From an uncultured Actinomycetota bacterium (GTDB lineage Bacteria > Actinomycetota > Actinomycetes > Mycobacteriales > Mycobacteriaceae): a stretch of DNA of 64,000 nucleotides. The stretch is from assembly GCA_963757215.1 (NCBI GenBank), contig CAVWQH010000001.1:26977-90976 (forward strand), written 5' to 3'. Under the pieces are notes generated by a model. It was not told the DNA's origin. It saw only the letters and a program-made list of their open reading frames with translations, and searched no databases. This document shows positions 5,139-49,442 of this stretch, piece after piece (the stretch's first letter is position 1; the number at the start of each line of letters is the position of its first letter). Both the position numbers and the translations under genes were made by a program.

Positions 5139-5158
5139 CGGCGGCCGCGCAGGTCCGC

Positions 5159-8908: not shown

Positions 8909-8924
8909 GCCTGTGGTGTACGGC

Positions 8925-12706: not shown

Positions 12707-12894
12707 GGCGCACTTCCCCTTTGATCGAGACAGCTGAATGGCACCTGAAGCTAAACTCAGAAAGCCTCAGCTGTCGCCATCGAAAGGGCGCTTCTTTACA
12801 ACCTCATATCAATCTGGCCAAACTCATATTCAAAAGGCGGGTCAAATGGGAACGCCGCATTCGCCTTTTATGTGGTGACGTGATAACGGGCGGA

Positions 12895-15309: not shown

Positions 15310-15310
15310 G

Positions 15311-16517: not shown

Positions 16518-16560
16518 GGCTTCCTCCGTCTCCAAATGTCGCACATTAGGCTGTGGCGTC

Positions 16561-17391
16561 GTGACCGACAAAGTTTCCATCGACCTCAGCGGTCCGTCGC
16601 AGACGATGCTGACCACCTTGTACTGCAAGGCGCTCGACGCTGACTGGGACCGGCCGATACTGGGCGACAAGTACGCCAAGGCGGCGGTGGCCCGGATCGA
16701 CTACAACTGGGACGAACTCAAGGTCTCCGACCGCTGGACGCCGCTGGTGACGGTGCGGACCGCCCAGTTCGACGTGTGGACTCGCGAGTTTTTGGCCGCC
16801 CACCCGGATGCCACCGTCATCCACGTGGGCTGCGGCCTGGACAGCCGGGTGTTCCGGCTGGATCCCGGGCCGGGCGTCGAATGGTACGACGTCGACTTTC
16901 CCGCGGTGATCTCGTTGCGCGAGAAGGTCTTTCCGAGCCGGCCGAACTACCACCTGGTTGGCACTCCGGCGACCGATCCGTCGTGGCTGGATGCAATCCC
17001 GGCCGACCGTCCGACGTTGTTTCTGGCCGAAGGCATCAGCATGTACCTTGCCGAGGACGACGGCGTCGCTCTGCTGCAACACGTCATCGACCGGTTCAAG
17101 ACCGGCGAGATCAACATCGACTACTACAGCCGGCTCGTTGTGCGGTCGCAGAAAACGCATCGCCTGCAACGGCAGTCCGGTTCGACGCTGCACTGGGCGG
17201 TCAACAAACCGTCCGATGTTCTCGATCGCCTGTCCGGGGCCCGATTGGTCGACGGGGTGACGTTCTTCGACGCCAGCACATTCGGTCGCGCCTCGGCAGT
17301 CTTCCGGTTGATGCGGCAGTTGGTCCGGCCGCTGCCGCCGCTGCGCCGAACCTTCCAGTACCACCGCTACGCCTACGGCCCGGTCAGCTGA
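16561..17391 (+). CDS. class I SAM-dependent O-methyltransferase (TcmP / leucine carboxyl methyltransferase-like)
   Basis: [18 protein letters not shown]-binding motif and a typical N-terminus ([14 protein letters not shown]). The start is either GTG 16561 or ATG 16516. Confidence 0.8.
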
Positions 17392-18637
17392 CGCCGGCGT
17401 GCTGCTGAGCGACCTCGGCGAGCAATGCGCGGATGGCGTCGATCGACTTCTCCGGTTCCGGTCCGTGCGAGTGGTATTCGACGTTGAGCTGTTCGGCGTA
17501 GATCTGGGTGAAGTAGATCTCGATGCCGGCGCTGACCTGAAAGTAGAGTTCGCCGTGCGTCGTCGTGACCTCGACACCCTCGGGTGTGCGCACCGGCGGC
17601 ACCAATCCGTTGTCGGACAACAACACCACGTCGGGCATGCCGGGCGCATTGCCGACATACTGCGGGCTGAAGTGCAGGCGTGACTGCTGGATGACGCCCT
17701 CGTCCAGGTCACCCTTGAACGTCGCCGCGATGTCGCGGGCCAACTCGACCACCGTGGTCTTCTGGTTGATCTCCGCGAGGTAGGTGCCCAGCCCGACCGG
17801 GTTGGTACACCCGGTCGCCGACACCGGCGGCGACAGGAAATAACGCAGGTCGACGGTGTAGATGAAGGGCACCGGAATGTTCAGCCGGCCGCGCACCTGC
17901 CATTCCCCGATCAGGATCGCGGCCGACAACACGGAGTGCAGACCCAGCTTCTCGGCGCGGCAGAGTTCGACGATCGCGTGTGTCTGGGCTTCACTGAGCC
18001 GGCACGATGCCATCGGAACCCGCACGGGCGACGGGGGTTTCGCCCCGGTGTCGCCGCGCCGGGACGGCGGGAGGTCGTAGGCGAACAGCGCCGGCATGAA
18101 CCGTTCGATGCCCGAACGCGATCCTTTCTGGATACCTCGATCGGCGAGCACGGTCTCGATCGACTCCGGCGCGGGCTGCGCGATCACCGGAGCGGTCTTC
18201 CCTGCTGTGACCAGATCGGTGTAGAACGACAGCAATTCCTCGATCAGGCCGTACATGTGGTGACCGTCGGCCAGCGCGTGGTGGACGTAGAGCGTGGGGT
18301 GCGCCTGCCCGTCGCGGATGAACAGCCGGAGGTGGACCAGCGACTCGCCCTGGTCGAAATGCGGTGGCGGATTGTCGGTCTGCGACGGGTCGACCTCGAT
18401 CACCTCGAGCCCCGAGTGCATGAGGTCGTCGGCGACCAGGTCGTGACGGCCGTCGGCACCGCGTTCCAGGCGTGCAGTGAGTACCGGGTGCGCCTCGAGC
18501 AGAAGGTCGAAGGCGTCCGTCAGCGCGTCGACATCGATCGGACCTTCCAGGTGTGCGGCGAGGCCGACGAAGTTGTGCGTCTCAGCGAGCATCTCCTCAC
18601 TGAGCGCCAGCTTGCGGATGACCGACGATGGAAACAC
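17384..18637 (-). CDS. PapA5-like polyketide-associated acyltransferase (stand-alone condensation-domain protein)
   Basis: 417 aa with a canonical HHxxxDG motif ([13 protein letters not shown], codons 18263-18283). The N-terminus [15 protein letters not shown] and later blocks (GVIQQS.LHF) match my memory of M. tuberculosis PapA5. Confidence 0.9.
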
Positions 18638-18659
18638 GTTCTGCCTTTCTCAGCTCGTC

Positions 18660-20050
18660 TTACGACAAGTCCACCAGTTCCATGTCGTCGCTGCCGGAAT
18701 CGATCTCGTCCGCCGCGAGAGCTTCCCGGATCAGATCCAGCAAGTCTCGCGAGAACCCGTCGGCCAGCGACTGCACGCGGGCCGCGTCGACCCGCCGGGT
18801 GTCATGCCACCAATCCAGGTGCAACACCCCGCCCGAGCGGAACACTCGTAGCTCGATCGCGTGACCGAGACCCGGAATCGCCTCGCGCACCGGCAAAGCG
18901 GTGTCCGAGTCGAACTGGACGGCGACGTCGTCGCCCAGCGCGGGCAACTCGGGGATGGTGCCGATGTAGTTGAAGAAGATCTCGGCCGGCCGGGACACCC
19001 CGAGCGCACGCGCGGTGGGCGCGTAGAGGTAACGCAGCAACCCGTAGCCGATTCCGTAGTGGGGCACCGCAGCCAGCGCGGTGTGCACCTCGTCCAGTGC
19101 CTGCTTGGCGTTGGCGCCGTTGGCGTTCGCGATGGCGCAGTTGAGCGCGACCGGGTACACGGTGCTGAACCAGCCGACCGTGCGGCGAAGGTCGACGTCG
19201 GGCTTGAGCACCGACCGCCCGTCGCCATTGACGTCGACGGCGACCGAACCTTCGCCGACAGCGGCCGCGATGGTCTGGCCGAGGGCGGCCAGCAGCATTT
19301 CGTCAATCGGCACCCGGAGTCGCCGTCGTGCGTCGTCGATCTCGGTGGTTTCCGCGACGGTCAACGTCGTCGACAGTCGGGACAGATCGGCCACCCGCGG
19401 CGCCTCGTGCACGCCGGCACCCGCCACCCGCAGGTTCGCGCCGGCCGCCGTCCGCAGCCAGAAGTCGCGGCTGTCGACGACCGCCGGGTGGACGGCCAGC
19501 GCCGCGCAACGCTGTGACCACTCGGCCCACGGCACGGAGATCGGCTGCAGCGCAATCTCTTCCCCGGCCAGCCGCTGTCCGAATGCGGTGAAGATGTCGG
19601 TCAGCAGGATGTCGCGGGAGGCGTTGTCGGCCGCGATGGCCGGCACGCTGATCGCGAGGTGGCACGAACCACCCTCCGCGCCAGTGACATACGTGGCGAC
19701 CAACGGGTGGCTGGACAGATCCTGTGAGCTGATCTGTTCCTGAAGGATGGCCAGCACCGCCTCGCGCTCCTGCGGGCTGCCCGCCGCGACATCGCCGGGC
19801 AGTGCTGCGGTGGCCAACTCGACGAGCTCTTCCGGCCCGCCGATGACCTGCTCCCAGGTGCCCGCCCGTTCGACGAGGCGAAGACGCAGCGCCTCGTGTT
19901 GATTGACGATCGCGGTGAGCACGGCGCGGATGTCGTCGGTCTGCACGTCCGGCCGCAGCCGCAGGATCAGCGGCACCCGCCACTGGCCGTGCTCGGCGAC
20001 CCCGTACTCGAGGAAGTACGAGATGTTCGGCGGGACAGGCGGATGCGTCA
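18660..20050 (-). other. C-terminal condensation-like domain of PKS5 with a non-canonical active-site motif
   Basis: The HHxxxDG position reads SVPAIAADNAS (19617-19646). Confidence 0.7.
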
Positions 20051-23000
20051 CGTCACCGGGTGACTGACGGGCCAGGCCGCCGGCCGTGTAGCGGGCGGTC
20101 AACGCCTTGGCTAGCGCGGCGACAGTCTGGTTCTCGTAGAGATCCTGCGGGGTGAGATCCAGGCCTTCGTTGCCGGCGGTCATCGCGACGCTGATCGCGA
20201 CCAGCGAGTCACCGCCCAGCTCGAAGAAGTTGGCCCTGCGGTCGACCGTGCCCAGGCCGAGGCACTGTCCCCAGATGCGCTGCAGGGTGGCCTCCATCGG
20301 CGACTGACCGTTCTTGGCCGCCGAGGCCGCCCCGGTAACGTCCGCCGTGGCAGCAGCTCCGTCGGCCACCGCGGTGTTGCCCGCCCATACGCTGGCCCGG
20401 TGCTCGATCCAATGCCGTTGACGCTCAAAAGGATAGCCCGGCAGGGTGATCAGCTGCGCCGAGTGCCCACCGCGCAGCGGCGACCAGTCCACCTCGACAC
20501 CGGCCGACCAGAGTTGGCCCAGCGCAAGCAGGAAGGCGTCCCGGTCGTCGCGGTTCTGCGCGTGATGGCGCATCAGCCGGACCGCGCGATGCCCGCTCGA
20601 CCACCGGGGGTGCCGGCTCGCCGAGGACGTCAGCGTGCCGCCGGGGCCTACCTCGATCAGGATCCGGTTCGGGTCGCCGAGTAGCACGTCGACCTCGTCG
20701 GAGAACCGCACCGTCGAGCGCACCTGGCGCGCCCAGGTGGCCGGGTTGATGGCTTCGCTGGCAGCCAGCCAGGTACCGGTGACGTTGGACAGCAATGGAA
20801 TATGGGGTTCGCGAAGGGTCTGGCGGGATAGGAAACCGGTGAACTCCGGGATCATCGAATCCATCAGCCGCGAGTGGAATGCGTGCGACGTGCGGACCCG
20901 GCGGGCCACGATGCCCTTCTCGGTGAGACGTTCGCTGAACTCGCGGATGCCTTCCTCGGATCCCGCGACGACGCAGCCGCCCGGCTCGTTGATTGCGGCG
21001 ATGTCGACCTCGCCGTTGAGGTACTCGCCCACCGCCTCGGGGCTCAGCGCCACCGCGACCATGACACCGCGCGGCGCGGCGTGCATCAGACGGGCACGCA
21101 TCGACACCACCTTGACGGCCGTCTCGACGTCGAAAACGCCGGCGATGGTGCCGGCGACATACTCGCCGATGCTGTGACCGGCCAGCGCCGCGGGCCGGAC
21201 TCCGTAGCTCTCAACCAGCTTCGCCAACGCGTACTCGACGGTGAACAGCGCGGGCTGGGTGCGGTCGGTGCGCTCCAGGTTGCGGGCCGTGCCCTCGAAG
21301 ATCTCGGCGCGAAGGTCGACGCCCAGCTCCTCGCCGAAACCGTCCGCGCACTGGTCGAAGTGCTCGGCGAACACCGGCTCGTGGTCGTAGAGGCCGCGGG
21401 CCATCCCGACGTGCTGCGCGCCCTGGCCAGGGAACAGGAAGATTACGCGCTCGGAATCCTTTGCGCCCGGTACGGATTCACCGACGAACACGTTGTCGTT
21501 CTCGCCGGCCTCCAGAACGGAGATCGCGTCCGGGACGTCCTTGACCACGGCGGCCATCCGGACGGAGTCCCTGCGGCGCCGGGCGAGCGTGTAGGCGACG
21601 TCGGCAAGATTGGCCCCGCCCGCGGAGTTCTGAGCGAGTTCGGCGGCCAACGACTTGCGGGACTGCTCCAGCGCGTCGGCGCTGCGCGCCGACATCAGCA
21701 GCACTTGTGCGCCGGACACCGGCGCCGAGGCCGCGATGCGAGGTGCTTCCTCGAGCACCACGTGCGCGTTGGTGCCACCGACACCGAACGAGCTGACCCC
21801 CGCGCGCAGAACGCCGTCCCACTCCCAGGGACCGTACTCACTGCGAACCTTGAAAGGTCCACGGTCGAGATGCAATTCGGGGTTCGGGCTGGTGTAATGC
21901 AGCGTCGCGGGGATGGCCCGGTGCTTGAGGCACAGAATTGCCTTGATCAGGCTGGCGATACCGGCCGCCGATTCCAGGTGGCCGATGTTGGACTTGACCG
22001 AGCCGATGTAACAGGGGCCGGAGCGGGGCTCCTCGGACACCTCGAAAGCTTGTCGCAGACCCTCGATTTCGATCGGGTCGCCCAGCGGGGTACCGGTGCC
22101 GTGCGTCTCGACGTAGCTGATCTCCGACGCGTCGACCTCGGCAATCGCATGCGCCTCCGCGATGACGTCGGCCTGTCCGGCCGCAGTCGGAGCGGCGTAG
22201 GTCATCTTCGTCGAGCCGTCGTTGTTCAGCGCCGAACCGCGGATCACGGCGTGGATGCGGTCGCCGTCGTCGACGGCGTCCTGCAGCGCCTTGAGCACCA
22301 CCACGCCGACGCCGCTGCCGAAAATCGTTCCGTCCGAACGTGCATCGAACGGCCGGCAGTGACCGGTCGGCGACACCATCGAGCCGGGGGCGTACCAGTA
22401 CCCGACGTGGTGCGGGATCCGAATCGACGCACCACCGGCCAGCGCCAGTTCACACTCGCCGTTCAGGATGCTCTGGCAGGCCAGGTGCACCGCCACCAAC
22501 GCCGAGGAGCAGGCCGTCTGCACCGACAGTGCGGGCCCGCGCAGATTCATCGCGTAGGCCACCTTGGTGGCCAGGTAGTCCTTGTCGTTCTGCATCGACA
22601 GCTCGACCATGTCGAACGTGATGCCTTGTCCCATGACCACATTCGGGTCACGGTTGGACATGATGTTGTGCAACAGATAACCGCTGGTGGTGCTGGTCGC
22701 GTAGACGCCCACCGTGCCCTCGATCTCGGCAGGGTCGTAGCCGGCGTCCTCGATCGCGTGGAACGCGGTCTGCAGGAACAGCCGATGTTGCGGGTCCGTC
22801 GAGCGCGCTGCCTGCGGGGTGAAACCGAAGAAGTCGGCGTCGAATTCGTCGATGCCATCCATGAGCGCGGCACGTCGCACGTAGGCGTGGTTGGCCAGCG
22901 ACTTCTCCGGAATGCCCTCGGCCAGCAAGTCGTCTTCGGCCAGCGTGACGATCGACTCTTCGCCGCGGCGCAGGTTGTCCCAGAATGCCGACAGCGTGCT

Positions 23001-23072
23001 GGCGCCGGGCAAGCGGGCCGCCATGCCGACCACCGCGATCGCGTTGGGCGGCAATTCGCTGTTGCTGGTCAC
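18660..23072 (-). CDS. type I PKS, KS-AT-ACP-C (PpsE-like terminal module), here called PKS5
   Basis: KS motifs (TACSSALV, HGTGT, NIGH). AT motifs (GHSIGE and HAFH, the malonyl-type signature). Carrier domain LGGDSL. C-terminal condensation-fold domain of about 450 aa. The GTG start overlaps the PKS4 stop (GTGA). Confidence 0.9.
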   Translation of the reverse strand: MTSNSELPPNAIAVVGMAARLPGASTLSAFWDNLRRGEESIVTLAEDDLLAEGIPEKSLANHAYVRRAALMDGIDEFDADFFGFTPQAARSTDPQHRLFLQTAFHAIEDAGYDPAEIEGTVGVYATSTTSGYLLHNIMSNRDPNVVMGQGITFDMVELSMQNDKDYLATKVAYAMNLRGPALSVQTACSSALVAVHLACQSILNGECELALAGGASIRIPHHVGYWYAPGSMVSPTGHCRPFDARSDGTIFGSGVGVVVLKALQDAVDDGDRIHAVIRGSALNNDGSTKMTYAAPTAAGQADVIAEAHAIAEVDASEISYVETHGTGTPLGDPIEIEGLRQAFEVSEEPRSGPCYIGSVKSNIGHLESAAGIASLIKAILCLKHRAIPATLHYTSPNPELHLDRGPFKVRSEYGPWEWDGVLRAGVSSFGVGGTNAHVVLEEAPRIAASAPVSGAQVLLMSARSADALEQSRKSLAAELAQNSAGGANLADVAYTLARRRRDSVRMAAVVKDVPDAISVLEAGENDNVFVGESVPGAKDSERVIFLFPGQGAQHVGMARGLYDHEPVFAEHFDQCADGFGEELGVDLRAEIFEGTARNLERTDRTQPALFTVEYALAKLVESYGVRPAALAGHSIGEYVAGTIAGVFDVETAVKVVSMRARLMHAAPRGVMVAVALSPEAVGEYLNGEVDIAAINEPGGCVVAGSEEGIREFSERLTEKGIVARRVRTSHAFHSRLMDSMIPEFTGFLSRQTLREPHIPLLSNVTGTWLAASEAINPATWARQVRSTVRFSDEVDVLLGDPNRILIEVGPGGTLTSSASRHPRWSSGHRAVRLMRHHAQNRDDRDAFLLALGQLWSAGVEVDWSPLRGGHSAQLITLPGYPFERQRHWIEHRASVWAGNTAVADGAAATADVTGAASAAKNGQSPMEATLQRIWGQCLGLGTVDRRANFFELGGDSLVAISVAMTAGNEGLDLTPQDLYENQTVAALAKALTARYTAGGLARQSPGDVTHPPVPPNISYFLEYGVAEHGQWRVPLILRLRPDVQTDDIRAVLTAIVNQHEALRLRLVERAGTWEQVIGGPEELVELATAALPGDVAAGSPQEREAVLAILQEQISSQDLSSHPLVATYVTGAEGGSCHLAISVPAIAADNASRDILLTDIFTAFGQRLAGEEIALQPISVPWAEWSQRCAALAVHPAVVDSRDFWLRTAAGANLRVAGAGVHEAPRVADLSRLSTTLTVAETTEIDDARRRLRVPIDEMLLAALGQTIAAAVGEGSVAVDVNGDGRSVLKPDVDLRRTVGWFSTVYPVALNCAIANANGANAKQALDEVHTALAAVPHYGIGYGLLRYLYAPTARALGVSRPAEIFFNYIGTIPELPALGDDVAVQFDSDTALPVREAIPGLGHAIELRVFRSGGVLHLDWWHDTRRVDAARVQSLADGFSRDLLDLIREALAADEIDSGSDDMELVDLS

Positions 23073-26000
23073 ACTCGGTCTCCTACCCTCCGCCGAGCCG
23101 CCGCACGCTGCCGGGCCGCGGCACGCTGCTTGGCTCGGTCGCGCACTCCCCCGCCGCTGTCGGCCTTTTCGGCGGTCTCGAGGCCCAGCTGGCGGATGAG
23201 GTCGGTGGTCAATGCGGTCAATGAGGCGCCCTGCAGCAACAGGGCCACCGGCGGTTCGACACCGAAGTCGCCACGGACAGTGTTGCGGATTCGTACGGCC
23301 ATAAGCGAATCCATGCCCAGTTCGGTCAGCGGCTGATCGGGATCGAGGGTGCTGCCCTTCGGGTAGCCCATGATGGCCAGGATGCGCGTGGCGAGCCGTC
23401 CGATGACGACCCGGTTCACCTCGGCAGGGTCCAGCTCGCGCAGCGCGTCGGGGCCGGCCCAGTCGTCATCCTCGTCGTCGATGTCCAGTTCGGCGGCCAG
23501 CTTGGAGAAGAAGCCCAGCTGCTGGATCTCCGGGAACGCGGCCGCGGCCCGGTCCAGCCGCAGCCTGGCCACCCCGATATTGGTGGGCCGGCCGGCCAGG
23601 ATGGCCTCCAGCGCCTCGATACCCTCGGCCGGCGAAATCGGGTCCAGCGCACTGAAAGTCAACGCGCGGGCCACGCCGATATCGGACCACTGGCCCCAGT
23701 TGATGGTGGTGGCAGGCAATCCCGACGCGCGTCGCCAGTCGACAAGGCCGTCCAGCCAGGCGCTCGCCGCGGCGTAGGCGCCCTGCCCGGGTGCGCCCAG
23801 CAGCGACGACGTCGAGGAGAAGCCGAGCCACCAGTCCAGGTCTTTGCCGACGGCCCCTGAAGTCACCGCGTGCAGCCGTAGCGCGCCATGGGCTTTGGGC
23901 GCCCACACCCGCTCCAGGCTGTCCTGGCTGAGGCCGGCGACGATCTGGTCGTCGAGCACGACCGCGCTGTGCATCACGCCACGCAGTGTCAGACCGGTCT
24001 CTTGGGCTGAACTGACCAACTTTTCCGCAACGCCGGGTGCCGCGATGTCGCCGAGTACGACGGCGACCTGGGCGCGCTGTCCGAGTTCCTCGACCAGTGC
24101 CTGCGCCTCGTCGGACGGCGTGGAGCGGCCGTTGAGCACCACGCGTCCGGCACCGCGGTCGACGAGCCAGCGGGCCATCGCGAGGCCGAGCCCGCGCAGG
24201 CCACCGGTGATGATGTAGGCGCCGTCGGAACGAACGGTGTTGTCGTTCTTGGCCGTTGGCAAGGTGGCGCGAGAAAGCCGTTTCGCATAGCGCTTGTCGT
24301 CACGCCACGCGATCACATCGTCGCCGGCCAGCCCGAATTCGGTGCTCAAGCCGCTCACGTCGTCACCGGCCAGGTCAACCAGGGTGGTGCGCAGGTCTGG
24401 GTGCTCGTAGGCCAGCACCCGGATCAGACCGGTCAGGGCGCTGACCGACGGGTCGCCGGACTCGCCGTCGCGGACGGCCAGTCCGTCACGGGACACCACC
24501 CACAGCCGGGGCGGTTTGCCATGCCAGCCGGTGAGGATCGTGCGGACCGTCGACGCGACTCCCCAGGTGAGGTCGCGACCCCGGCCCGCGGCGTCGCCGG
24601 ACTCGGAGCCGTCGAACGACTGCCGGCCCGCGAAGACGACCACGCCGACCGGCGGCAACTCGGCGTCGCCGGCGGTCTGCGAGAATGCCTCCAGCACAGC
24701 CGATTCCTGGGTCAGGTCGGCGGTGAGCAACCGTCGGGTCGGCGTGCCGAATACCGCGGCGAATTCCTTGGCGACGGCCTCGGACTCGGCGCCGTCGGTC
24801 AGCACCAGCCAACTGCCGTCCGGGGCCGCCGCCGATGCGTCGATCGGTGTCTCGACCCATTGGGTGTCGAAGATCTTCTGTTCCAACGGCATTGGCACCG
24901 TGCGGCGCTGCACACGCTGCAGGTAGATGCCGCTGATCTCAGCGGTGGGGGTGCCGGCCTCATCGGTGATCAGCACCCGGCCGTTGATGCCGGCGCCGCC
25001 CCCATCCGGGTTGACCAACTCGGCGCGGCACCGGGCGCGACGCCCTACCTCGCCGAACACCCGGATCTTCTCGAACGACACCGGAAGATAGGTGGCTTCG
25101 TCGGCGTCGGCCAACGATTCGCTCGACAGCGCGGCGGCCAGGCCCTGCAGCGCCGCGTCGAGCAGCACCGGGTGGATGCGGTAGCCACGATGTCCGGTGG
25201 CCTCGTCGGGCAACACGATCTCGGTTTCCGACGTGCCGTTGGGACGGCGCACGATGCGGGTCAGCGCGGCAAACGCCTGCCCGTGGTGCAGACCGGTGGC
25301 GCGCAACGCCGAGTAGAGGTCCGCGGGTGACAACACCGTGCCGGGTTCCGACGACGAGGGCGCAACAGTCGGCGGTTCCGACTGCCCCACTTCAACTTTG
25401 GCGACGGCGTGGCGGATCCATGCGCCGGTGGCCGAGCGCGAATGGATTTCGACGCGGATCTCGTCGCCGTCCTTCTCGCCGCGGGTCAACTGCGTGGTGA
25501 GCTGGGTCGAGTCGCCCAGCGGCAGCATCTGCTCGACCTCGACGCCGACCGACACCGACGTGGCGGGCAGGCCCAGCGCCTCGCTGGCGGCGGCCAATGC
25601 GATCTCGCCGAAGCCGGTGCCGGGCATGACTGGTTGGCCGTGCACCTTGTGGTCGAGCAGGTACGGAACGAGTTCGGTGCCGACGTCGGCGGTGAAGACG
25701 TGGTCGCGACCCGAAGGCAATTCGACGTGCGTGCCGAGCAGTGGGTGGGCGCTGGCCGGCTGCCGGTTGGTCGCGGTCGGCGCCGCCCAGTAGCGGACGT
25801 GCTGCCACGGCGTCGGCGGCAGGTCGACGAGTTTCTTTGTGCCGTCGGCATTGTGCGCTGCGGCGACCGACGGCGGCCGCACCGTCGCCAGCTGGGTGTG
25901 GAATGCCAGCGTCTCGGGGTTGTCGCGGGTCAGGGTTCCGGCGACCTGGGCGCCACCACGCGGCTTGGCCGACTCCAGCGTGCCGTTGATGGCATGGCTG

Positions 26001-28483: not shown

Positions 28484-28499
28484 CAGAAGATTCTTCCCA

Positions 28500-33794: not shown

Positions 33795-33799
33795 CCCGC

Positions 33800-38571
<4,772 letters not shown>

Positions 38572-38572
<1 letters not shown>

Positions 38573-41500
38573 CAGATGCCCCTTTCACGGCCAGCCGGCG
38601 CCGACTCCACGCTGTCGAACAGATCGCTCAACACGCCTCCGTCCGATTCACCCAAAATGTCGTCATCGCTCTCGGATTCCGGCTGCGGCGATACCTTTTT
38701 CGCAAGATGTTCGGCCAGCGCCACGATAGTCGGGTAGTTGAACAGCATGGTCGCGGATAGCTCGATCCCGACGAATAACTCGGTATCCCGCCGGACAGAC
38801 ATCGCCATCACCGAGTTCAGCCCGTATTCGGCGAACGGCCGGTCGGAGTCAAGATCGGCCTCGGCGAGCTGCAGCTCGCGGGCCAGAATGGCCCGCAACC
38901 CGGTCTGCAGCTCGGAACGAACGTCCTCGGCGGACATCTCCGACCAGGCCGGGGTGGCCACGCGCGGTTCGGCGGAGGCGGACCCCTTGGCCCCGTCGGT
39001 CGCCGAAGTCGAAGCCATCGGCGCCATGACGACCTGCGCGACGTCGTAACGCGCCAGGTGATCCCAGGCGGCGAAGGCTTCGTCGGCGCTGATGGCCCGG
39101 GAGCCGAGCCGTTCGAGCTCCTGCAGCGCGATCTGAGCCTCTGCGCCGAAGCCGAGGCCGTGCCAGGCCACCCAGTCCTGGCTGACGGTGTGGCAACCCT
39201 GCCGGTGTCGCGCCTGCGCCAGACCGTCGAGGTAGGCGTTGGCCGCGGCGTAGGCGCCCTGGCCCGGCACACCGAACACCGCGCCGGCCGCCGCGGTCAG
39301 GAACATGAAGTCGAGGCTGCCCGGTGGGAAAGCCTGGTGCAGCACCTGTGCGCCGGCGATCTTTGGCCAGATCGTGCGCCGCAGCCGGCTTTCCTCCAGC
39401 TCGGTGAACAACTCGGCATCGGTGATGCCGGCGCCGTGGACGACGCCGCGGATCGGCACCGCACCCTCGTCGTCGCGTTTGGCCAGGAGCGCGGCCATCG
39501 CCTCGGGCGAGCCGATGTCGAGTGCGACGGCTTCGACGGCGACACCGCGGGCTTCCAGCGCGCGGACGGCATTGATCTTCTCGCGGGTGGCCGCGTCGCC
39601 GGTCTCGCTGTCCCACTCGCGACGCGGCGGCAGCGCGGTGCGACCGGCGAGGATCACCCGACGCGCGCCTCGGTCGGCCAGCCAGCCGGCCGTCAGCAGG
39701 CCGAGAGCACCGAGGCCACCGGTGATCAGGTAGGCCGCGTCGGGGCGGCAGCGCAGTGGCTCGCGAACCGGCTCACCGGACAGCGGCTTGAGGCCTGGCG
39801 CGAAGAACTCGCCGTCGCGCAGCGAAAGGATCGATTTCGCGGGCGTCCGCAGCATCGGGGCCAGCGTCGGCACCAGCGAACCGATCGACGCGTCCTCCGG
39901 CAGGTCGATCAGGCCGCCCCACAACTGCGGCTGCTCGGCCCGGATGACACCTGCCGTCCCCCAGAGCGGGCTCTGGGCGACCGCGGCGTCCGAACTGCCG
40001 TCCCGCACGCCGCGGGTGATGATCCATAGCGTCGCGGGATGACTCTCGTCGCGCTCGGCCAGGCCGCGAACCAGCTCGACCAGCTCCATCGACATCCGCA
40101 CAGCGCCGTCGACATCGCTTTCGCCGGACCGCGACTCGGCAACGTAGACGACGTATCGCGCATCGGCGACGGCGGCGGCGGAGTAGCCGTTGCGGGTCAG
40201 CGCGTCGGCAATGTCGTTGTCGCCCAACACCGCAACGGTGCCCGAGCCGCCGTCGCTGGCCTCGTCGGCAGTGAACGGCTGCCAGTCGATGGCGTGCACC
40301 ATCGTGGCCGGGTCGTCCTTGCGCCCGGCGGCGGTGCCGGCGTCCACCGCGGCGAAGCGCAGCCCGCGCACCTCGACGCAGGTGCTGCCGTCCGGGGCCG
40401 TCGCGGTGATGTCGACGACGAGTTCTTCCTCGTCACCGCCGCGACGGCGCACCTCGACGCGGCCGTGCGGGTCGGCGAGGTCGCCGGTGAACGCGACGCT
40501 GGCGACCGCGGCCGGGACCATCAGCCGCGGGTTGTCGGCATCCAGCAGGCGGGCGATGTGAATTGCGGCGTCCAGCAAGGCAACTGCCGAGCTTTGGGTC
40601 AGCTCGACGTCGGCACTCAACTCGCCGGCCTTGGCGTGGCAGGTGCCGATGGACCAGCCGAACGGCCGGCCTTCGCTGCCCCAGGTCTGCCAGAACGACG
40701 TCAGCGACTCGTCGTCGAAGTCGGCGTCGGCAGCGTCCGGCGCGGCGATCGCCTCTGCCGGGCCCGCCGGCGGGTTGTCGTGCGAGATCTGCGCGCTGGC
40801 GTGCCGGATCCAGCCGGCGCCCCCCGCGCTGGACGACACGGTGACCGATGCACCGTCGGCGACCACCTGGATCAGGCGCGGTTCGCCCACGACGATTGGG
40901 TACTCAAAGCGGATACCGGACAGCGCCGCGGCGTCGTATTCGCCGGCGGCGATCGAAAGTGTTTGCAGCAGAACCGATATCGGGATGATCTCGACACCGT
41001 TGTTGTGGTGCGATCCCGGGTAGGGCTTGGTGGTGGACGTCAGCCGCGCCTGCCACAGATGCGCCGGCGGGCTCGCGGCCACCGGGATGTGCTGGCCGAG
41101 CAACGTGCCGCGCTGCGGCGCCGATTCGGCGGTCGTCACAAATTCCTCGGCGCTGATCCAGTGCTGGGTGTGGTGCCACGGCGCGCTCGGCAGCACCGGG
41201 CGCGGCTCGGGCGGGTGCGGCACCGTCGGCGGGCGCATGACGTGCGTGCGGTTGAGGTTGGTGTGGAAGCTGACCGTGTCATCACCCTTGCGCGACAACG
41301 TCCCAACGCTGTGGTGGTGTTCCGGTTCCAAGGTCTCGGTGATGGCGTGCGTCAGGGTGGGGTGCGGGCTGATCTCGACGAACGTCGCGTACTGCGCGGC
41401 GGCGGTACTGATGGCCTGGTGCAGGCGCACCGGCTCACGCACATTGGCCACCCAGTAGTCGGCGTCCAGGGCCGGCGCGACGGTGGGGTCGGCGACCGTG

Positions 41501-43857
41501 GAGATGAACGGGATCTTCGGCGCCGTGGGCTTGAGATCGGCCAGCGCGGAACGCAATTCGGGCAGGATCGGGTCCATCAGCGCGGTGTGCGAGGCAACTT
41601 CCATGTTGACCCGTCGCGCGAAACGCTCCCGGGCGCTGGCGGCGACGATCGCGGCGTCCACCTGCGGCACCGCGCCGGCGATCACGGTCTGCCGTGGCGA
41701 CAGGAATCCGGCCAGGCTCACGTCGGGATAGTCGGCGAGGAACGTCGAGGCCGCCTCGGCGTCCATCTCCAGCAGGCCCACTGCGCCCTGGCCGGCCAAC
41801 CGCGACATCAGCCGCGACCGGATCCCGATGACCCGCAGACCCTCGTCGGGAGTGAGCGCCCCCGCCACCACGGCCGCGGTCACCTCACCCATCGAATGCC
41901 CGATCACCGCGTCGGGTTGCACGCCGTACGAGCGCCACAACGCGGTCAGCGCCAGCTGCAGACCCATCAGCACCGGCTGGACGCGGGCATCACCGCTGAC
42001 TCGCTGACCTTCGGTCAGAACCTGGTACAGCGAGAAGCGCATGTGCTCGACGAACAGCGGCTCCAGCTCGTCGACCGCGGCGGCGAACGCCGGCTCGTCG
42101 ACCAAAAGCTGCCGGCCCATGCCGGCCCATTGCGAGCCCTGCCCGGAGTACACGAAAACCGTTCCGGGCTTGCACAATCCCTCGTGCGGCTCGACGAGTC
42201 CGATCGCCGACTGGCCGGCCGCCAGTGCCTGCAAACCGGCGACTGCGTGCGCGCGATCGCGCACGGCCAGCGTGGCGAACGCCTTGTGCTGGGTGCGGTG
42301 GTGGTTGAGCGTGTGGGCGATATCGACCAGCGGCACCGGGGCGCCGTCACCGATCATCCAGTCGGCCAGGGTGGCGGCCGTCGATGCGATGCGCGCCGGC
42401 GTCTTGCCCGAGACCACCAGCGTGGTGATCACCGATTCTGGTTGCGGCGCAACAGGTTCAGGGTCCGGCGCCTGCTCGAGGACCACGTGGGCGTTGGTGC
42501 CGCTGACCCCGAACGACGACACCCCGGCGCGGCGGGCGCGCTCGACTGCGGGCCACTCCATGCCGCCGGCGGCGATGGTGAACTCCGATGCGCCCTCGAC
42601 GGCGTTGGGCGTCAACTCGGTGAAGTGCAGATGCTGCGGAATGTAGCCGTGCTGCACGGTGAGCACGGTCTTGATGAAGCCCGCGATACCGGCGGCCGAC
42701 TCGAGGTGGCCAAGGTTGGTCTTCACCGACCCCAGCACCAGTGGTGCCGCGCCGTTGCGATCGCCGAATACGTGGTGCAGCGCGCCCAGCTCGATCGGAT
42801 CGCCCAGGGCCGTGCCGGTGCCGTGGGCCTCGATGTAGTCGATATCCGAGGGCTCCAGGCGCGCCGCCGCCAGCGCCGCGCGGACGACCGCCTGCTGGGC
42901 GGGACCGCTGGGCACCGTCTGGCCGCTGCTGGGCCCGTCCTGGTTGACCGCCGACCCGCGCACCACCGCCAACACCGAATCGCCGTCGCGCACAGCGTCA
43001 CTCAGCCGTTTGAGCACCACGACGCCGCAGCCCTCGCTGCGGACGTAGCCGTCGGCGTTGGCATCGAAAGTCTTGCAGCGGCCGTCGGGAGCGAGCATCC
43101 CCCACCGCGACGTGGCAACGCTGTTCTCCGGGCTCAGCATCAGGTTGACCCCGGCCACCAGCGCCTGATCGCTCTCCCGCCGGCGCAGGCTCTGGCAGGC
43201 CAGATGGACTGTGACCAGCGAAGACGAGCACGCCGTGTCGAGCACGACCGCGGGGCCGTGGACACCCAGAAAGTAGGACAAGCGTCCGGCAGCAAAGTTT
43301 GCGGCGTTGCCGAACGGGACGTGCGGGTCGACCTCCTCCGGTGGGAGCCGTCCGGCCAGGGTCAGGGTGTAGTCGTAGGTGGTCATTCCGACGAAGACCG
43401 ACGTCTGGCTGCCGCGGATCATCGGCGCGGTGATGCCCGCGTTTTCCAGTGCCTCCCAAGTGACTTCGAGCAACAGCCGCTGTTGCGGATCCATTGCCGC
43501 GGCCTCGCGTGGCGAGATCCCGAAGAACTCGGCGTCGAACTCGTCAGGGCGCCAGGAGGTGAGGAACCCGCCCTCTTTGCTGACGATCGTGCCGGGCACC
43601 GAATGGTCGTCGGCGAAGAATGCGTCGGCGTCCCAGCGCTCGGCCGGAACTGCGACGATGCCGCTCTTGCCCTCCTGCAGAATCCGCCAGAACTGGTCGG
43701 GCGTATTCGCCCCACCCGGAAGCCGGCAACCGATACCCACCACCGCGATCGGCTCGGTGTCGCCCTTTTCCGCGATCGCCAACCGCGCTGTCAGATCGTC
43801 GATCTTGCGCAGCGCCTCGGTGATGATGGCCCGACGGTCCGACGGTGCAGCAGTCAT
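38572..43857 (-). CDS. type I PKS, KS-AT-DH-KR-ACP, here called PKS1
   Basis: ATG 43857 ([12 protein letters not shown]) preceded by GGGGGGAG. KS ([17 protein letters not shown]). AT (GHSMGE, VASH). DH ([17 protein letters not shown]). KR ([16 protein letters not shown]). ACP (YGLNSVMAM). The 67-codon upstream extension in the ORF track was rejected. Confidence 0.9.
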
Positions 43858-43907
43858 CGCGCTCCCCCCGGTCCGTCGGAAAGTGGTTGTCGTATTACAC
43901 CGTGTGC

Positions 43908-43928
43908 GGCGAGAGAGGTGCTCTCGCC
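43908..43928 (-). other. stem-loop in the FAAL-PKS1 spacer
   Basis: ggcgagag / ctctcgcc, an 8-bp stem with a 5-nt loop, about 50 nt upstream of the PKS1 start. Confidence 0.35.
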
Positions 43929-44118
43929 GACCGATGTCATCCGGGCGTATCCAGTCGGTTCGCCGCGTCGCGCCCACAACGATGTGCCCAGCCGAAGTGA
44001 CTGATGTTACCGCCACTCGGCCGTTGCCGAACGCACCCCCCCTGCACAGCGGGCACAAAAAAACTGTCAGAGAACACTGGCTTTACCCCCGCTGCGGTGC
44101 AAAGCCGCCTGGACGCCA

Positions 44119-45864
44119 CTAAGCGGTGGAATCCAAACGGCTGAAGTCGTCCTGTCGGTAGACCTCAACGCACGATGAACGGCGGATCTTCCCGCTGGTA
44201 GTGATCGGAATCGACCCGGGCGGAACGAGCACGAGGTCGGCCACCCGGAGCCCGTGGGACTTCGAAATGGCAGACGTGACTTGCGCTCTCACATCGCGGA
44301 GACGATCCGCCATCTCCTGGGTGTTGCCCTTGTCCTTCATCTCGGCGATCACGATCAGGCGCTCGGTGCGACCGTCCTCGACGGAGATCGCCGCGACGCG
44401 ACCGCCGCTGATCTCCTGCGTGGTGGCCTCGATGTCGTCCGGGTAGTGGTTGCGCCCGTCGACGATCAGCAGGTCCTTGATCCGCCCGATGATGTACAGC
44501 TCGCCATCGTGGATGGTGCCCAGGTCGCCGGTGCGCAGCCACGGGCCGAGCGGAGTGCCGCTCGACGGGTCGACGAGCTGACCACCGAAGGCCTTCTGGG
44601 TCTGCTGAGGCTTGCGCCAGTAGCCGGCGGCGATGTTGGCGCCGTGCAGCCAGATTTCGCCGACCATGCCGGCCGGGTTCTCGCGGCGGGTCTCCGGGTC
44701 GACAACGCGGATCATCGACGCGCGCGGGACGCCGACGCTGACCAGCTCGACCCCGGTCTCGTTGTCGCAGGCCTCGGCATGACCGGCGGACAGCTTCTCG
44801 TAGTCGAAGGTTGCCACGGTCGGCGGCCGTCCCGGGCCGGACGAGTTCACGTAGACCATCGCCTCGGCCAGGCCATACGACGGCTTCAGCGAGCTGGCCG
44901 GGAAGCCGAACTGCGAGAAGCGGTCGTTGAAGCGCCGGATGGTGGCCGCGTGCACGCGCTCGCTGCCGGACAGGATGGTGTGCACGCCGGACAGGTCGAG
45001 CCCGGCCATGTCCTCGTCGGTGGTCCGCCGGGCGGCCAGCTCGAACGCGAAGTTCGGCACCGCGGTGAAGACGCGGGTGTTGTTCGCCATCTCCTGGATC
45101 CACCGGGCGGGACGCTGCAGGAACGCCATCGGGCTCATCAGCACCGAGTGCAGACCCATGGTCAGCGCGCCGGTGATGCCCAGCAGCAGGCCCATGTCGT
45201 GGTAGACGGGCAGCCAGGACACCAGCGTGGTGTCGGTCGGCGGAATCGCGCCTTCGGCCTCGAAGTAGTCGTCACGCACCTGCTGGACGTTGGCCAGGAT
45301 GTTCTTGTGGGTGACCACGACGCCCTTCGGCGAACGCGTCGAGCCGGAGGTGTACTGCAGCACGGCGTTCTTGGTCCGCGGCGCGGGCGGGGCATTGAAG
45401 TCGGGCGTCGCGACCAGGTCGAGGCTGTCGACCTCGATCAGGGCCGGCGGTTTGCCGGGCAGCGAACGCGCGCAGCCGACGACGTCGTCGACGACAGCGG
45501 AGGTGGTCAGCAACACGGTCGGAGCGCAGTCCTGCAGCGCCGCCGTGGCCCGCTCGTCGTGGGCGCCGTACATCGGAACCGGCAGGGGCACCGCGACCAG
45601 TCCGGCCTCGAGCGCGGCATAGAAGGCGACGACATAGTCCAGGCCCTGGTGGGCCAGGATCGCGGCCCGGTCGCCCGGCGCGCCAACGGTGGCGATCTCG
45701 GCGGCCAGCACCTGGACACGGCCGTAGAGGTCACCCCAGTTGAGCGTCTGACGGTAGCCGGCCGGATCGACCTCGTAGTCGACGTACGTGTAGGCCGGTG
45801 CATCCGGTTGCTGCCGGGCCCATTCCCGCAGTACTGCGGCAATGGAAGCTTCGGTTACTGCCAT
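44119..45864 (-). CDS. fatty acyl-AMP ligase (FAAL, FadD26/FadD28-type)
   Basis: AMP-binding motif YTSGSTRSPKGV and a FAAL-like N-terminus (YTYVDYE...LNWGDL). It sits directly upstream of the PKS genes. ATG 45864 is preceded by AAGGGGTGG. Confidence 0.9.
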   Translation of the reverse strand: MAVTEASIAAVLREWARQQPDAPAYTYVDYEVDPAGYRQTLNWGDLYGRVQVLAAEIATVGAPGDRAAILAHQGLDYVVAFYAALEAGLVAVPLPVPMYGAHDERATAALQDCAPTVLLTTSAVVDDVVGCARSLPGKPPALIEVDSLDLVATPDFNAPPAPRTKNAVLQYTSGSTRSPKGVVVTHKNILANVQQVRDDYFEAEGAIPPTDTTLVSWLPVYHDMGLLLGITGALTMGLHSVLMSPMAFLQRPARWIQEMANNTRVFTAVPNFAFELAARRTTDEDMAGLDLSGVHTILSGSERVHAATIRRFNDRFSQFGFPASSLKPSYGLAEAMVYVNSSGPGRPPTVATFDYEKLSAGHAEACDNETGVELVSVGVPRASMIRVVDPETRRENPAGMVGEIWLHGANIAAGYWRKPQQTQKAFGGQLVDPSSGTPLGPWLRTGDLGTIHDGELYIIGRIKDLLIVDGRNHYPDDIEATTQEISGGRVAAISVEDGRTERLIVIAEMKDKGNTQEMADRLRDVRAQVTSAISKSHGLRVADLVLVPPGSIPITTSGKIRRSSCVEVYRQDDFSRLDSTA

Positions 45865-46228
45865 CGGGACACCACCCCTTAGATCTAGAGCCCCGGACAA
45901 CAAACAGGCGGGCGCTTGTGATGCAGGAGATTAACAGGGGCCTCGCACCTCTCGGACCAAAAACCCAAGAATGAAATAAGTGCGCCAAACATAAGACCCG
46001 TTCCAGCCAGCGTCATTGCTGGGACCATAGGTTTGCTATGTGGGTCACTTCCGGAGGCGTCCACTCCCCGGTCGCGACGTGCCTACCTTACCGGACGGTC
46101 AGATCGTTCGCATAATTCCGAATAATTAAAGTCTTTGCGGTCGATATGGCGTGGTGGAGACGTTGAGACACGTTCTCGCGATGACCGCGGCCGCTGAGCA
46201 GCTCATGGAAGTCTGCTGTCCGTCTCCT

Positions 46229-46244
46229 GTGACACCTGTGTCAC
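46229..46244. promoter_or_regulatory. palindrome GTGACAC-CT-GTGTCAC in the 660-bp TE/FAAL spacer (candidate operator)
   Basis: 7-bp inverted repeat arms separated by 2 nt, seen directly. No binding factor is assigned. Confidence 0.3.
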
Positions 46245-46525
46245 CAGTGAAACCTCCGCCGAAGAGGCGGTTTGCTGGATATCGCCGCGCCGACGCCGTG
46301 GTGTGGGGTTTTTCACTTTTTGTCCCGCCATCCCCAGTTGGACGCGCGTCGGGATCCGCGCGAGGACCCCGAGCCGGTCCGCGGTAGCCGATCTATCCAG
46401 ATTATCGGAAATACCGTCCAATTTGTCGGTTACATAATGGATTCGACAATTAAAGAACGGCGTCGTTTCCGGTTCGTGATTGGATCGGCACCGCGGGCAA
46501 CAATCGTTTCATTTAATGATGTTGC

Positions 46526-47275
46526 TCAACCCCGGCAAGTGGACAAGATCTTTGTCTCGATCTCACTAACCAACTCGGCTATGTGGTCGGTCAGATAAAA
46601 ATGGTGGCCCGGAAAAACTTTCATAGAGAACTCAGAGGTCGTGCGCTGCGACCACGGTTCCACCTTCGCGGGGGTCGCGACTTCGTCGTCGTCGCCCAGG
46701 AACGCAGAGATCGGGCAGGACAACGTCTCCCCGGGCGGGCAGTCGTATTTCGAGATCGCCTTAAGCCCGCGCAGTGTCGGCAGGATGCTGGCGGCGAATT
46801 CCTCGTTTTCGAGAAACTCAGGGTTGACACCCGTCATCTCGCTCACCGCGTCCAGCAGACCGCGGTCGGATTCGGGGACATGTTCGTAGCCGACGTGGCC
46901 CGGCGCGGCGACGGCCGAGACGAACAGGGCCGCAATCGGACTGCCCGCCTGCTCGAACCGACGCGCGACCTCGAACGCCAGCAGTCCGCCCATGCTGTGG
47001 CCGAAGAAGGTGATTTTGTCGTGCGGGTCTTCGGGCGGCTTGATCATCTGGCAAACCTTGTCGGCGAGATCGCCGATGGTGGTGAATGACCCGAGATCAT
47101 GATTACCACCGCGCCCCGGATACCGAACGGCAACGCGTTTGATATCGCTGGCAAAGGCTTTGGCGAACGGCACGTAAAACTCCGCCGATCCCCCAGCGTG
47201 CGGAAAGATGAAAAGCTTCGGTGGCTGCCCAGTCACGCGGCAACGATACAGTCCCCCACCTGCCCGCCCCACCAT
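46526..47275 (-). CDS. type II thioesterase (TesA-like)
   Basis: LFIFPHAGGS and GHSMGG motifs. Length and sequence blocks read like M. tuberculosis TesA. Confidence 0.85.
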   Translation of the reverse strand: MVGRAGGGLYRCRVTGQPPKLFIFPHAGGSAEFYVPFAKAFASDIKRVAVRYPGRGGNHDLGSFTTIGDLADKVCQMIKPPEDPHDKITFFGHSMGGLLAFEVARRFEQAGSPIAALFVSAVAAPGHVGYEHVPESDRGLLDAVSEMTGVNPEFLENEEFAASILPTLRGLKAISKYDCPPGETLSCPISAFLGDDDEVATPAKVEPWSQRTTSEFSMKVFPGHHFYLTDHIAELVSEIETKILSTCRG

Positions 47276-47830: not shown

Positions 47831-47848
47831 TCGGATCGCGGGTTCGGA

Positions 47849-49060: not shown

Positions 49061-49114
49061 AATTCGTCAACCGACAACGAAATAACTTCACACGCCCACC
49101 AGAAGGAGAGAGAT

Positions 49115-49411: not shown

Positions 49412-49442
49412 CCGATCACCGAAAACTTTTAGGAGAACCCTC

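Follow-up and report, generated by a model that had tools for sequence, protein, structure and literature searches.

Introduction

The phthiocerol dimycocerosates (DIM) are a major virulence lipid of Mycobacterium tuberculosis, and their origin is unclear. The locus for DIM and the phenolic glycolipids (PGL) of M. tuberculosis and of the DIM/PGL producer M. kansasii contains tesA, fadD26, ppsA-E, drrABC, papA5 and mas. The Pps proteins are modular polyketide synthases (PKSs) built from ketosynthase (KS), acyltransferase (AT), dehydratase (DH), enoyl reductase (ER), ketoreductase (KR) and acyl carrier protein (ACP) domains. Here we analysed a window of 64,000 nucleotides (nt) from an uncultured member of the Mycobacteriaceae (assembly GCA_963757215.1, contig CAVWQH010000001.1, positions 26,977 to 90,976). 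Nine of its genes code for a TesA-like thioesterase (TE), a fatty acyl-AMP ligase (FAAL), five PKSs (PKS1 to PKS5 in order of transcription), a PapA5-family acyltransferase (PapA) and a convergent methyltransferase (MT). From the comparisons below we conclude that the region is probably a functional assembly line of the pps/DIM family of mycobacterial lipids, in a previously uncharacterised variant whose product can be predicted only.

Comparison with the DIM/PGL locus

The TE is 52% identical to M. tuberculosis TesA (best PDB match 6fvj, E = 5e-78), and PapA is 46% identical to PapA5 (1q9j) over its full length. As reference for the Pps proteins we used the M. kansasii assembly GCA_002003585.1 (locus L046, 1-20684). 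It is frameshifted and was compared piecewise, from PpsA (without its N-terminus) to PpsD. The frameshifts break ppsA-D into many gene calls, probably a matter of assembly quality. The AT-DH-like-KR-ACP body of PpsA aligned end to end with residues 646-1759 of PKS1 (50% identity over 1145 amino acids, aa) and the AT-KR-ACP body of PpsB with residues 578-1589 of PKS2 (56% over 1025 aa). The PpsC KS fragment had its best match in PKS3 (70%), and PpsD corresponded to PKS4 with 65% identity in the KS, 57% in the DH and 61% in the KR. Furthermore, the PKS1 AT matched the solved AT domains of M. tuberculosis PpsA and PpsC with E = 1e-110 to 1e-111, the ACP motif GLNS is common to PKS1 and PpsA, and the ACP motifs of PKS2 and PpsB also agree. 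PKS5 clusters in a KS-AT family tree with the terminal modules of pps-drrABC-papA5 loci. Alignments, Pfam and the tree agree on five PpsA-E-homologous PKSs that end in a KS-AT-ACP-C module (C, condensation-like domain), and they are accompanied by a TesA-type thioesterase; a DH-ER-KR module is absent. As judged from these alignments, the cluster is colinear with ppsA-E, with five modules in both systems.

An earlier note on this DNA had read the genes as sharing the grammar of tesA-fadD26-ppsABCDE-papA5 and as differing from the DIM locus. Both statements agree with our results: the first with the TesA and PapA5 identities and the alignment of PKS1, PKS2 and PKS4 with M. kansasii PpsA, PpsB and PpsD, the second with the lack of an ER, a PapA below the equivalog cut-offs and different AT motifs. 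The additional DH-KR module that it had counted does not exist. Both systems have five modules, and PKS1 corresponds to the PpsA body, whose inactive DH-like region matches; Pfam also weakly detects this region in M. kansasii PpsA.

The similarity to the DIM/PGL locus extends over the gene grammar, the number of modules, the terminal KS-AT-ACP-C module and the types of docking ends. The differences are as follows: a module with a decayed DH and a KR (PKS3) takes the place of the PpsC-type DH-ER-KR loop, the loading ACP sits on the PpsB-like rather than the PpsA-like protein, the ATs of the first three modules are of the VASH rather than the VAPH type, the DH-like domain of PKS1 keeps its catalytic His, two middle modules have identical docking ends, the MT is of the LCM type, and drrABC, mas, fadD28 and mmpL7 are missing within the 64 kb. 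None of the open reading frames (ORFs) of the window resembles mas, drrABC, fadD28, an mmpL gene or Rv2953, which bears out an earlier observation that mas, drrABC and mmpL are not visible. The modules also do not correspond along their whole length. PKS3 and PKS4 are 52% identical over their full length, and the KS of M. kansasii PpsB is nearest to the PKS4 KS (70-73%) and not to the PKS2 KS, while the C-terminal half of PpsB matches PKS2. This mosaic indicates domain-level recombination within the pps family, as far as the alignments can tell.

The nine genes and the domains listed for them in the earlier note were all recovered (ORF list, Pfam; Table 1), and the coupled junctions that it had reported are exact on direct reading: PKS1 and PKS2 share TGATG at 38574-38570, PKS4 and PKS5 share GTGA at 23072-23069, and the gaps between PKS2 and PKS3 and between PKS3 and PKS4 measure 5 nt (33795-33799) and 16 nt (28484-28499). 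PapA is encoded 22 nt after PKS5, and its stop overlaps the MT ORF by 8 nt. The start codons of the PKSs were assigned from their N-terminal docking sequences. The FAAL scored 903 bits against the NCBIfam model NF004509 'fatty-acid--AMP ligase' (cut-off 775), with FadD23 and FadD28 as closest PDB entries. In every module the KS Cys-His-His, AT GHSxG, KR Tyr and ACP Ser are complete, and they are conserved in the orthologues too; the set has what defines modular cis-AT type I PKSs (KS, AT, KR Tyr with NADPH motif and ACP Ser per module). All nine ORFs are full length compared to their orthologues. Inactivating frameshifts, named earlier as a possible refutation, were not encountered in these ORFs, and the catalytic residues are present.

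TE and FAAL lie ~660 nt apart. The intervening stretch (45865-46525) has a lower G+C content and holds no convincing ORF, and Rfam and tRNA scans found no Rfam family and no tRNA in the window including this gap, which is probably the promoter or leader of the FAAL-PKS operon.

Table 1. Features of the window (positions counted from its first nucleotide; DH*, decayed DH)
Feature	Position	Strand	Evidence or remark
TesA-like type II thioesterase (TE), 249 aa	46526-47275	-	Pfam Thioesterase E = 3e-47
FAAL	44119-45864	-	likely start MAVTEAS at 45864; ORF open to 45903
PKS1, docking-KS-AT-DH-like-KR-ACP, 1761 aa, no N-terminal ACP	38572-43857	-	Pfam; start MTAAPSDRR
PKS1 DH-like domain	40288-41100	-	His and Asp (LLDAAIH) kept; Pfam DH scores weak
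PKS2, loading ACP-KS-AT-KR-ACP, 1590 aa	33800-38572	-	Pfam, two PP-binding stretches
PKS2 N-terminal loading ACP, ~95 aa	38288-38572	-	Ser in LGLGSRD; sequence read directly
PKS3, docking-KS-AT-DH*-KR-ACP, 1764 aa	28500-33794	-	Pfam
PKS3 decayed DH	30375-31046	-	alignment with PKS4 and orthologues
PKS4, docking-KS-AT-DH-KR-ACP, 1804 aa, PpsD-like	23069-28483	-	Pfam, strong DH matches
PKS5, KS-AT(HAFH)-ACP-C, 1470 aa, PpsE-type terminal module	18660-23072	-	Pfam
PKS5 C-terminal condensation-like domain	18663-20018	-	VPAIAADN where HHxxxDG is expected
PapA5-family acyltransferase (PapA), 417 aa	17384-18637	-	HHALADG; Pfam PapA_C E = 1e-52
LCM/TIGR00027-type S-adenosylmethionine-dependent methyltransferase (MT)	16561-17391	+	convergent; Pfam LCM E = 2e-15
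Flavodoxin-like gene	15819-16520	-	Pfam/NCBIfam
DUF2505 gene	15311-15811	-	Pfam/NCBIfam
Nitroreductase-family gene	14581-15314	-	Pfam/NCBIfam
Tandem paralogous gene	12895-14418	-	507-597 aa for the five copies
Tandem paralogous gene	10994-12706	-	
Tandem paralogous gene	8925-10634	-	
Tandem paralogous gene	7145-8755	-	
Tandem paralogous gene	5159-6952	-	
Short-chain dehydrogenase/reductase (SDR)	4311-5138	+	Pfam
PE-PPE-domain protein	3013-4266	+	Pfam
SDR	2074-2913	-	Pfam
Alpha/beta hydrolase	1209-1994	-	Pfam
Cytochrome P450	44-1198	+	Pfam
PE	47534-47830	+	divergent from TE
PPE	47849-49060	+	divergent from TE
esxB-like	49115-49411	+	divergent from TE
esxA-like	49443-49727	+	divergent from TE

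Reductive domains, loading and extender units

None of the PKSs gave an ADH_zinc or ADH_N match in Pfam. A tblastn search of the window with the ER domain of the PpsC-like module of Mycobacterium sp. IS-1496 (locus L024) returned E = 0.33 at best. When M. kansasii PpsC was used as the query, its ER part found no match in the window and only the first ~80 residues, which precede the ER, aligned to PKS4 (E = 1e-6) and PKS3 (E = 0.005). In the PpsC-like modules of M. kansasii and IS-1496, which served as positive controls, the ER was clearly detected. The earlier claim that no module has an ER is thus confirmed by Pfam and by tblastn with two ER domains.

The remaining DH domains are in different states. 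The DH of PKS4 is canonical (HKVHGQPVMP and DAALQ motifs), and its KR is of the B type with an LDD motif. PKS4 has the layout of PpsD, DH and KR with no ER; PpsD reportedly works with the trans-acting enoyl reductase Rv2953, of which the window holds no counterpart. In PKS3 ~35 residues including the YGPxF motif are gone relative to PKS4, the position of the catalytic His is occupied by H, N, Q or a deletion among 15 orthologues, and the Pro of the motif is replaced by Ser. Because the YGPxF segment is missing and the catalytic His varies, the PKS3 DH is to all appearances dead. A derivation of PKS3 from PpsC by loss of the ER was considered and ruled out, as the DH-KR part of PKS3 resembles PpsD and PKS4 (40-47%) and the DH-ER part of PpsC only at 28%. 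For PKS1 the earlier note had given the layout KS-AT-DH-KR-ACP, which is right apart from the DH, a divergent domain of the PpsA type. In 16 orthologues neither the His of HxxxGxxxxP nor the Asp of DxxxH varies. As M. kansasii PpsA has a Tyr at the position of the catalytic His, the PKS1 domain may be active, unlike its counterpart in PpsA.

The only N-terminal ACP of the cluster sits on PKS2, the second-encoded PKS; PKS1 starts with a docking helix. The FAAL is therefore not accompanied by a loading ACP on the PpsA-like PKS1, its place being on the PpsB-like PKS2. The NCBIfam model of Pks13 aligns to PKS2 from residue 8 and spans the N-terminal ACP and the KS. FadD32-Pks13 likewise pairs a FAAL with the N-terminal ACP of a type I PKS, but Pks13 is a single condensing module with a thioesterase and not a multi-protein reducing line.

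The AT domains were grouped by two short motifs. VAPH is found in M. tuberculosis PpsA and PpsC and in M. kansasii PpsA, PpsB and PpsC, with QIQLGL upstream wherever that stretch was read, and VASH in M. kansasii PpsD, M. tuberculosis Mas and the Mas-like PKS of M. smegmatis. By the structures of phthiocerol and mycocerosate the VAPH group (PpsA-C) adds unbranched units and the VASH group (PpsD, Mas) methyl-branched units. PKS1 to PKS4 carry (R/Q)(V/I)QPVL...VASH, PKS5 carries HAFH, and the ATs of PKS3 and PKS4 are nearly identical to that of PpsD around the VASH motif. From the PpsD/Mas-type signature of PKS1 to PKS4 we infer that methylmalonate would be used at four positions and malonate at the last (PKS5). 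At the level of motifs the malonyl-type ATs that the first three Pps modules have are therefore missing from PKS1 to PKS3. The earlier note had named three differences from the DIM locus and had overlooked these methylmalonyl-type signatures.

These results bear on the question whether the cluster is simply the ordinary DIM/PGL pps operon of a known producer with a misread ER module. The gene grammar and the homology to tesA, fadD26, ppsA-E and papA5 would suit such an operon. There is, however, no ER in any frame, while the PpsC-like modules of M. kansasii and IS-1496 show theirs clearly, and the AT motifs are unlike those of PpsA-C. PapA, 46% identical to PapA5, falls under the NCBIfam equivalog cut-offs, and drrABC is lacking, yet present in IS-1496 and Mycolicibacillus koreensis. 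The nearest relatives are M. shimoidei and soil metagenome-assembled genomes (MAGs), which are not known as DIM producers. On the lack of an ER, the AT motifs, the PapA scores and the missing drrABC this explanation is refuted at the level of sequence, and we regard it as next to impossible.

Order of the modules

The docking ends of M. kansasii define the classes to which we compared the termini in the window. At the PpsA-to-PpsB junction a C-end SVLDSLFDRIES meets an N-end MSAQQRATLAEEFTK, at the PpsB-to-PpsC junction a C-end EDELLEQLSERL meets the PpsC-N type, and at the PpsC-to-PpsD junction a C-end EEMDLLADLVEASELE meets an N-end LAERAAQLSPNARAALAREL; at the PpsD-to-PpsE junction the C-end is a basic tail and the N-end is not defined. 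In the window the C-end of PKS2 is of the PpsB-C type. PKS1 and PKS3 both have N-ends of the PpsC-N type and C-ends of the PpsA-C type. PKS4 begins with MSGEQRDAITQKFD, of the PpsB-N type, and ends in a basic tail of the PpsD-C type. These classes are the same in all orthologues examined. In M. kansasii the PpsA-C tail pairs with the PpsB-N end, and PKS4 alone bears an end of this type in the window. Since the ends fall into the M. kansasii docking classes, the cognate route would lead from PKS2 to either PKS1 or PKS3, then to PKS4 and finally to PKS5. The earlier note had listed the domains of the PKSs correctly and had missed that the docking ends of PKS1 and PKS3 are equivalent.

Two kinds of related loci are informative here. 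The relative L026, with four modules, has exactly one middle module with ends of the PKS1/PKS3 type. In IS-1496 and the related locus L028 two PpsC-N-type modules follow each other in series, and the first of them has a PpsB-C-like tail that ends in (S/P)E(R/K)V(N/S). Such a tail is found on neither PKS1 nor PKS3. Because the two share their docking termini and lack this tail, their alternative use appears somewhat more likely than their serial use.

We therefore put forward, as a tentative reading, a naturally branched assembly line in which PKS1 and PKS3 are alternative second modules. Both would accept the chain from the loader PKS2 and both would deliver to PKS4, so that two series of lipids would result, beta-diols when the chain passes PKS3 and dehydrated forms when it passes PKS1. 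The arrangement is conserved in at least 15 genomes or MAGs of Mycobacterium species, and together with the tailoring block conserved in three genera it would represent an ancestral form, widespread in the environment, from which the DIM locus arose by module recombination. This docking-equivalent pair makes the use of alternative modules by a natural assembly line directly testable.

The rival is a serial line that begins with PKS2, passes through PKS1 and PKS3, whichever comes first, and finishes with PKS4 and PKS5, each acting once. It would make either a triol with four methyl branches or a diol that contains an internal double bond, with an enone or a methyl ketone at the end. Five modules would then perform five cycles as in PpsA-E, and at least 12-20 orthologous clusters keep all five PKSs intact. 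The junction of PKS1 and PKS2 is translationally coupled, and the consecutive PpsC-N-type modules of IS-1496 demonstrate that such modules can be chained. In IS-1496 and L028, however, the first module of the chained pair bears the PpsB-C-like tail where PKS1 and PKS3 bear the PpsA-C type, the partner end of that type occurs in the window on PKS4 only, and the DIM system itself could not maintain the sequence of its modules unless the two docking classes discriminated. On balance we hold the serial line to be doubtful.

Predicted product, release and esterification

In the branched reading the FAAL would adenylate a long-chain fatty acid and load it onto the N-terminal ACP of PKS2. PKS2 would add methylmalonate and reduce to the beta-hydroxyl, which converts the starter R-CO into R-CHOH-CH(CH3)-CO-S. 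PKS3, with its KR only, would add a second CHOH-CH(CH3) unit, giving a beta-diol like the site of phthiocerol that PapA5 accepts. On the PKS1 route a double bond would replace the second hydroxyl if the PKS1 DH is active. PKS4 would then add methylmalonate as CH=C(CH3), an alpha-methyl enoyl that becomes saturated only with a trans-acting ER encoded elsewhere, and PKS5 would add malonate with no reduction as a CO-CH2-CO-S beta-keto unit. The TesA-like TE may aid release, and hydrolysis and decarboxylation would lead to a methyl ketone. The expected product is a polymethyl-branched long-chain beta-diol or hydroxy-enone, akin to phthiodiolone and free of the saturated spacer of the PpsC type. 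PapA would esterify its hydroxyl group or groups, and the MT, possibly with the flanking SDR, P450 and flavoenzymes, would tailor the terminus.

Several points weigh against this proposal. The docking argument presumes that the discrimination between PpsA-C and PpsC-N ends carries over, and the C-terminal helices of both docking types are similar amphipathic peptides; the serial five-module route therefore stays plausible. The DH-like domain of PKS1 lacks the Tyr of the YGPxF motif and scores weakly against DH profiles, and it may be inactive in spite of its His and Asp. The call of AT specificity uses two short motifs calibrated on six family members. A trans-acting ER and MmpL or Drr exporters may be encoded outside the 64 kb, and the window holds no mas-like gene to supply the acyl donor for PapA. 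Finally, the catalytic His of the C domain is absent from PKS5, from all 13 of its orthologues and from the terminal modules of IS-1496, M. koreensis and L026. Judged from these relatives the loss is a trait of the PpsE-type family and not a defect of this cluster, and the release step proposed above is therefore tentative even by analogy. That the missing HHxxxDG motif might be a novelty of PKS5 was ruled out, since the terminal modules of three related loci, two of which keep drrABC, lack it as well.

The same domain bears on a further possibility, a remnant that is silent or in decay and makes no product. The decaying DH of PKS3, the C domain of PKS5 without its catalytic His and the lack of an adjacent transporter gene could be read in this way. 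Yet the nine ORFs are all intact and none of the essential residues of KS, AT, KR and ACP is missing, the proteins of many species keep 73-95% identity and are not disrupted in any good assembly, and the His loss is common to the whole PpsE-type family examined. A remnant is thus very unlikely.

PapA scored 622 bits against NF006790 (cut-off 716) and 400 bits against the PapA5 model NF006789 (cut-off 873). By the NCBIfam cut-offs it is a member of the PapA5 family and not an equivalog. The convergent O-methyltransferase reported beside the cluster is present at that position; its membership in the LCM/TIGR00027 family, which is not known to be that of Rv2952, had been overlooked. A search by sequence found no relative of the MT in the PDB, and the gene adjoins PapA in all relatives that were compared, IS-1496 and M. 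koreensis among them.

The two enzymes allow another reading, in which the cluster product acts as an acyl donor. PapA would offload the PKS5-bound beta-ketoacyl chain onto an acceptor alcohol, or the LCM-type MT would methyl-esterify the released acid, and in neither variant would a decarboxylated ketone be formed. PapA follows PKS5 directly with no drrABC between them, and the window contains no mas-like donor PKS. The MT belongs to Pfam LCM, a family that includes carboxyl O-methyltransferases such as TcmP, and PapA1 and PapA3 provide a precedent, as both take PKS-bound acyl chains. The subfamily models and the structure nearest to PapA are nevertheless those of PapA5, which acylates a polyketide diol. 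Furthermore, a TE of the TesA kind and a terminal module of the PpsE type belong to the phthiocerol route, and MT and PapA are also adjacent in loci that keep drrABC. We consider the acyl-donor reading improbable and retain esterification of the product by PapA.

Distribution and related loci

Homologues of PapA number in the hundreds at 70-88% identity and include proteins of M. shimoidei, Mycolicibacter species, M. holstebronense, Mycolicibacterium mengxianglii and Candidatus M. methanotrophicum. With PKS3 as the query, 43 loci were found in species-representative genomes. In all loci long enough to cover the cluster the order TE, FAAL, PKS1 to PKS5, PapA, MT was the same. For each gene, 12-20 genomes had a full-length orthologue with 73-95% identity, among them that of the cultured Mycobacterium sp. 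1245111.1, and no fewer than 16 Mycobacterium genomes or MAGs with full coverage contain the whole cluster. Fragmented ORFs of the cluster occurred only in long-read MAGs, and these look like assembly errors. A PKS4-like and a PKS5-like gene, PapA and the convergent LCM-type MT, with no drrABC, recur in M. shimoidei, Mycolicibacter minnesotensis, Mycolicibacterium mengxianglii and a 433-kb MAG contig, and no window-type relative examined has drrABC between PKS5 and PapA.

This distribution does not support the earlier suggestion that the cluster is a replacement specific to one lineage at the place of pks3/4-papA3. The complete set of genes is present in Mycobacterium sp. 1245111.1 and many MAGs, and its PapA-proximal part recurs together with the left flank in M. 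shimoidei, Mycolicibacter minnesotensis and Mycolicibacterium mengxianglii. The right flank (lpqY-sugABC, corA, mdh, lpqZ-like) is presumably a neighbourhood other than pks3/4, going by the Rv numbering.

The pps-drrABC-papA5 loci of IS-1496 and M. koreensis (L042), likewise uncharacterised, share with the cluster the VASH-type ATs, the LCM-type MT beside PapA and a PpsE-type terminal module that is 59-63% identical. They differ in that they keep drrABC, and their PapA reaches no more than 47-59% identity. In addition, IS-1496 has retained a KS-AT-DH-ER-KR-ACP module, preceded by a non-reducing KS-AT-ACP second module (both within 1098-11098 of its locus). Its loader comes before the other modules; in L028 the loader directly follows the FAAL. 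L026 has a module with the Pfam order KS-AT-KR-DH_N-ACP and a VASH-type AT (4611-9971), and in M. koreensis an 807-aa fusion of a cytochrome P450 and Methyltransf_11 lies between papA5 and the LCM-type MT (11485-13908).

The known DIM producers are thus not alone in having the machinery of FAAL, Pps-type PKSs, TesA, PapA5 and MT, since M. shimoidei, the M. terrae group and many soil mycobacteria possess it too. Because there is no ER, the ATs are of the methylmalonyl type, the loading ACP has moved and no Drr or Mas genes are nearby, we predict wax lipids of a family not yet described, diols or enones with methyl branches. The cluster, IS-1496, L026 and M. koreensis together form a natural series of module variants for the evolution of pps loci by recombination. 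A full-text search that omitted most subscription journals found no literature on the cluster, its product or DIM-like lipids in M. shimoidei or Mycolicibacter.

Flanking genes

The flavodoxin-like, DUF2505 and nitroreductase-family genes stand in the same order beside PapA and MT in M. shimoidei, Mycolicibacter minnesotensis, Mycolicibacterium mengxianglii and MAG locus L045, and in M. koreensis the flavodoxin-like and DUF2505 genes follow the MT. Further out, the trio of SDR, hydrolase and P450 is syntenic in M. shimoidei with 75-80% identity; Mycolicibacter and Mycolicibacterium have the three genes in the same flank in varying order. Compared to M. shimoidei, the SDR at 2074-2913 and the gene for the PE-PPE-domain protein are inserted between SDR and hydrolase. 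Rv2951c (ketoreduction) and Rv2952 (O-methylation) convert phthiodiolone to phthiocerol, and by analogy with these steps the flavodoxin-like, DUF2505, nitroreductase, SDR and P450 genes may be tailoring genes of pps-like clusters. The P450, the hydrolase and the SDR would belong to the pathway by conserved neighbourhood only. Alternatively, the flanking genes may reflect nothing but a conserved chromosomal site.

Between the two groups lies a tandem array of five genes for a putatively secreted family, whose proteins share 42-56% mutual identity, an N-terminal helix resembling a signal or transmembrane segment and four invariant Cys. They have no Pfam or NCBIfam match. There are 383 homologues in all, and among the 120 listed the named ones are all Mycobacterium. 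An AlphaFold2 model of mediocre quality (pLDDT 68) is mostly helical, and Foldseek found no fold match for it in the PDB (best E = 0.47). The five copies compare with two in M. shimoidei and Mycolicibacter minnesotensis, at least four in L045, whose locus ends inside the array, and none in Mycolicibacterium mengxianglii. When present, the array is always in the same flank of the pps-like cluster.

On the other side, the flanking PE/PPE/esx quartet described earlier is present at 47534-49727 on the plus strand. The PE, PPE, esxB-like and esxA-like genes are also found upstream of the TE in the relatives L029, L035 and L038.

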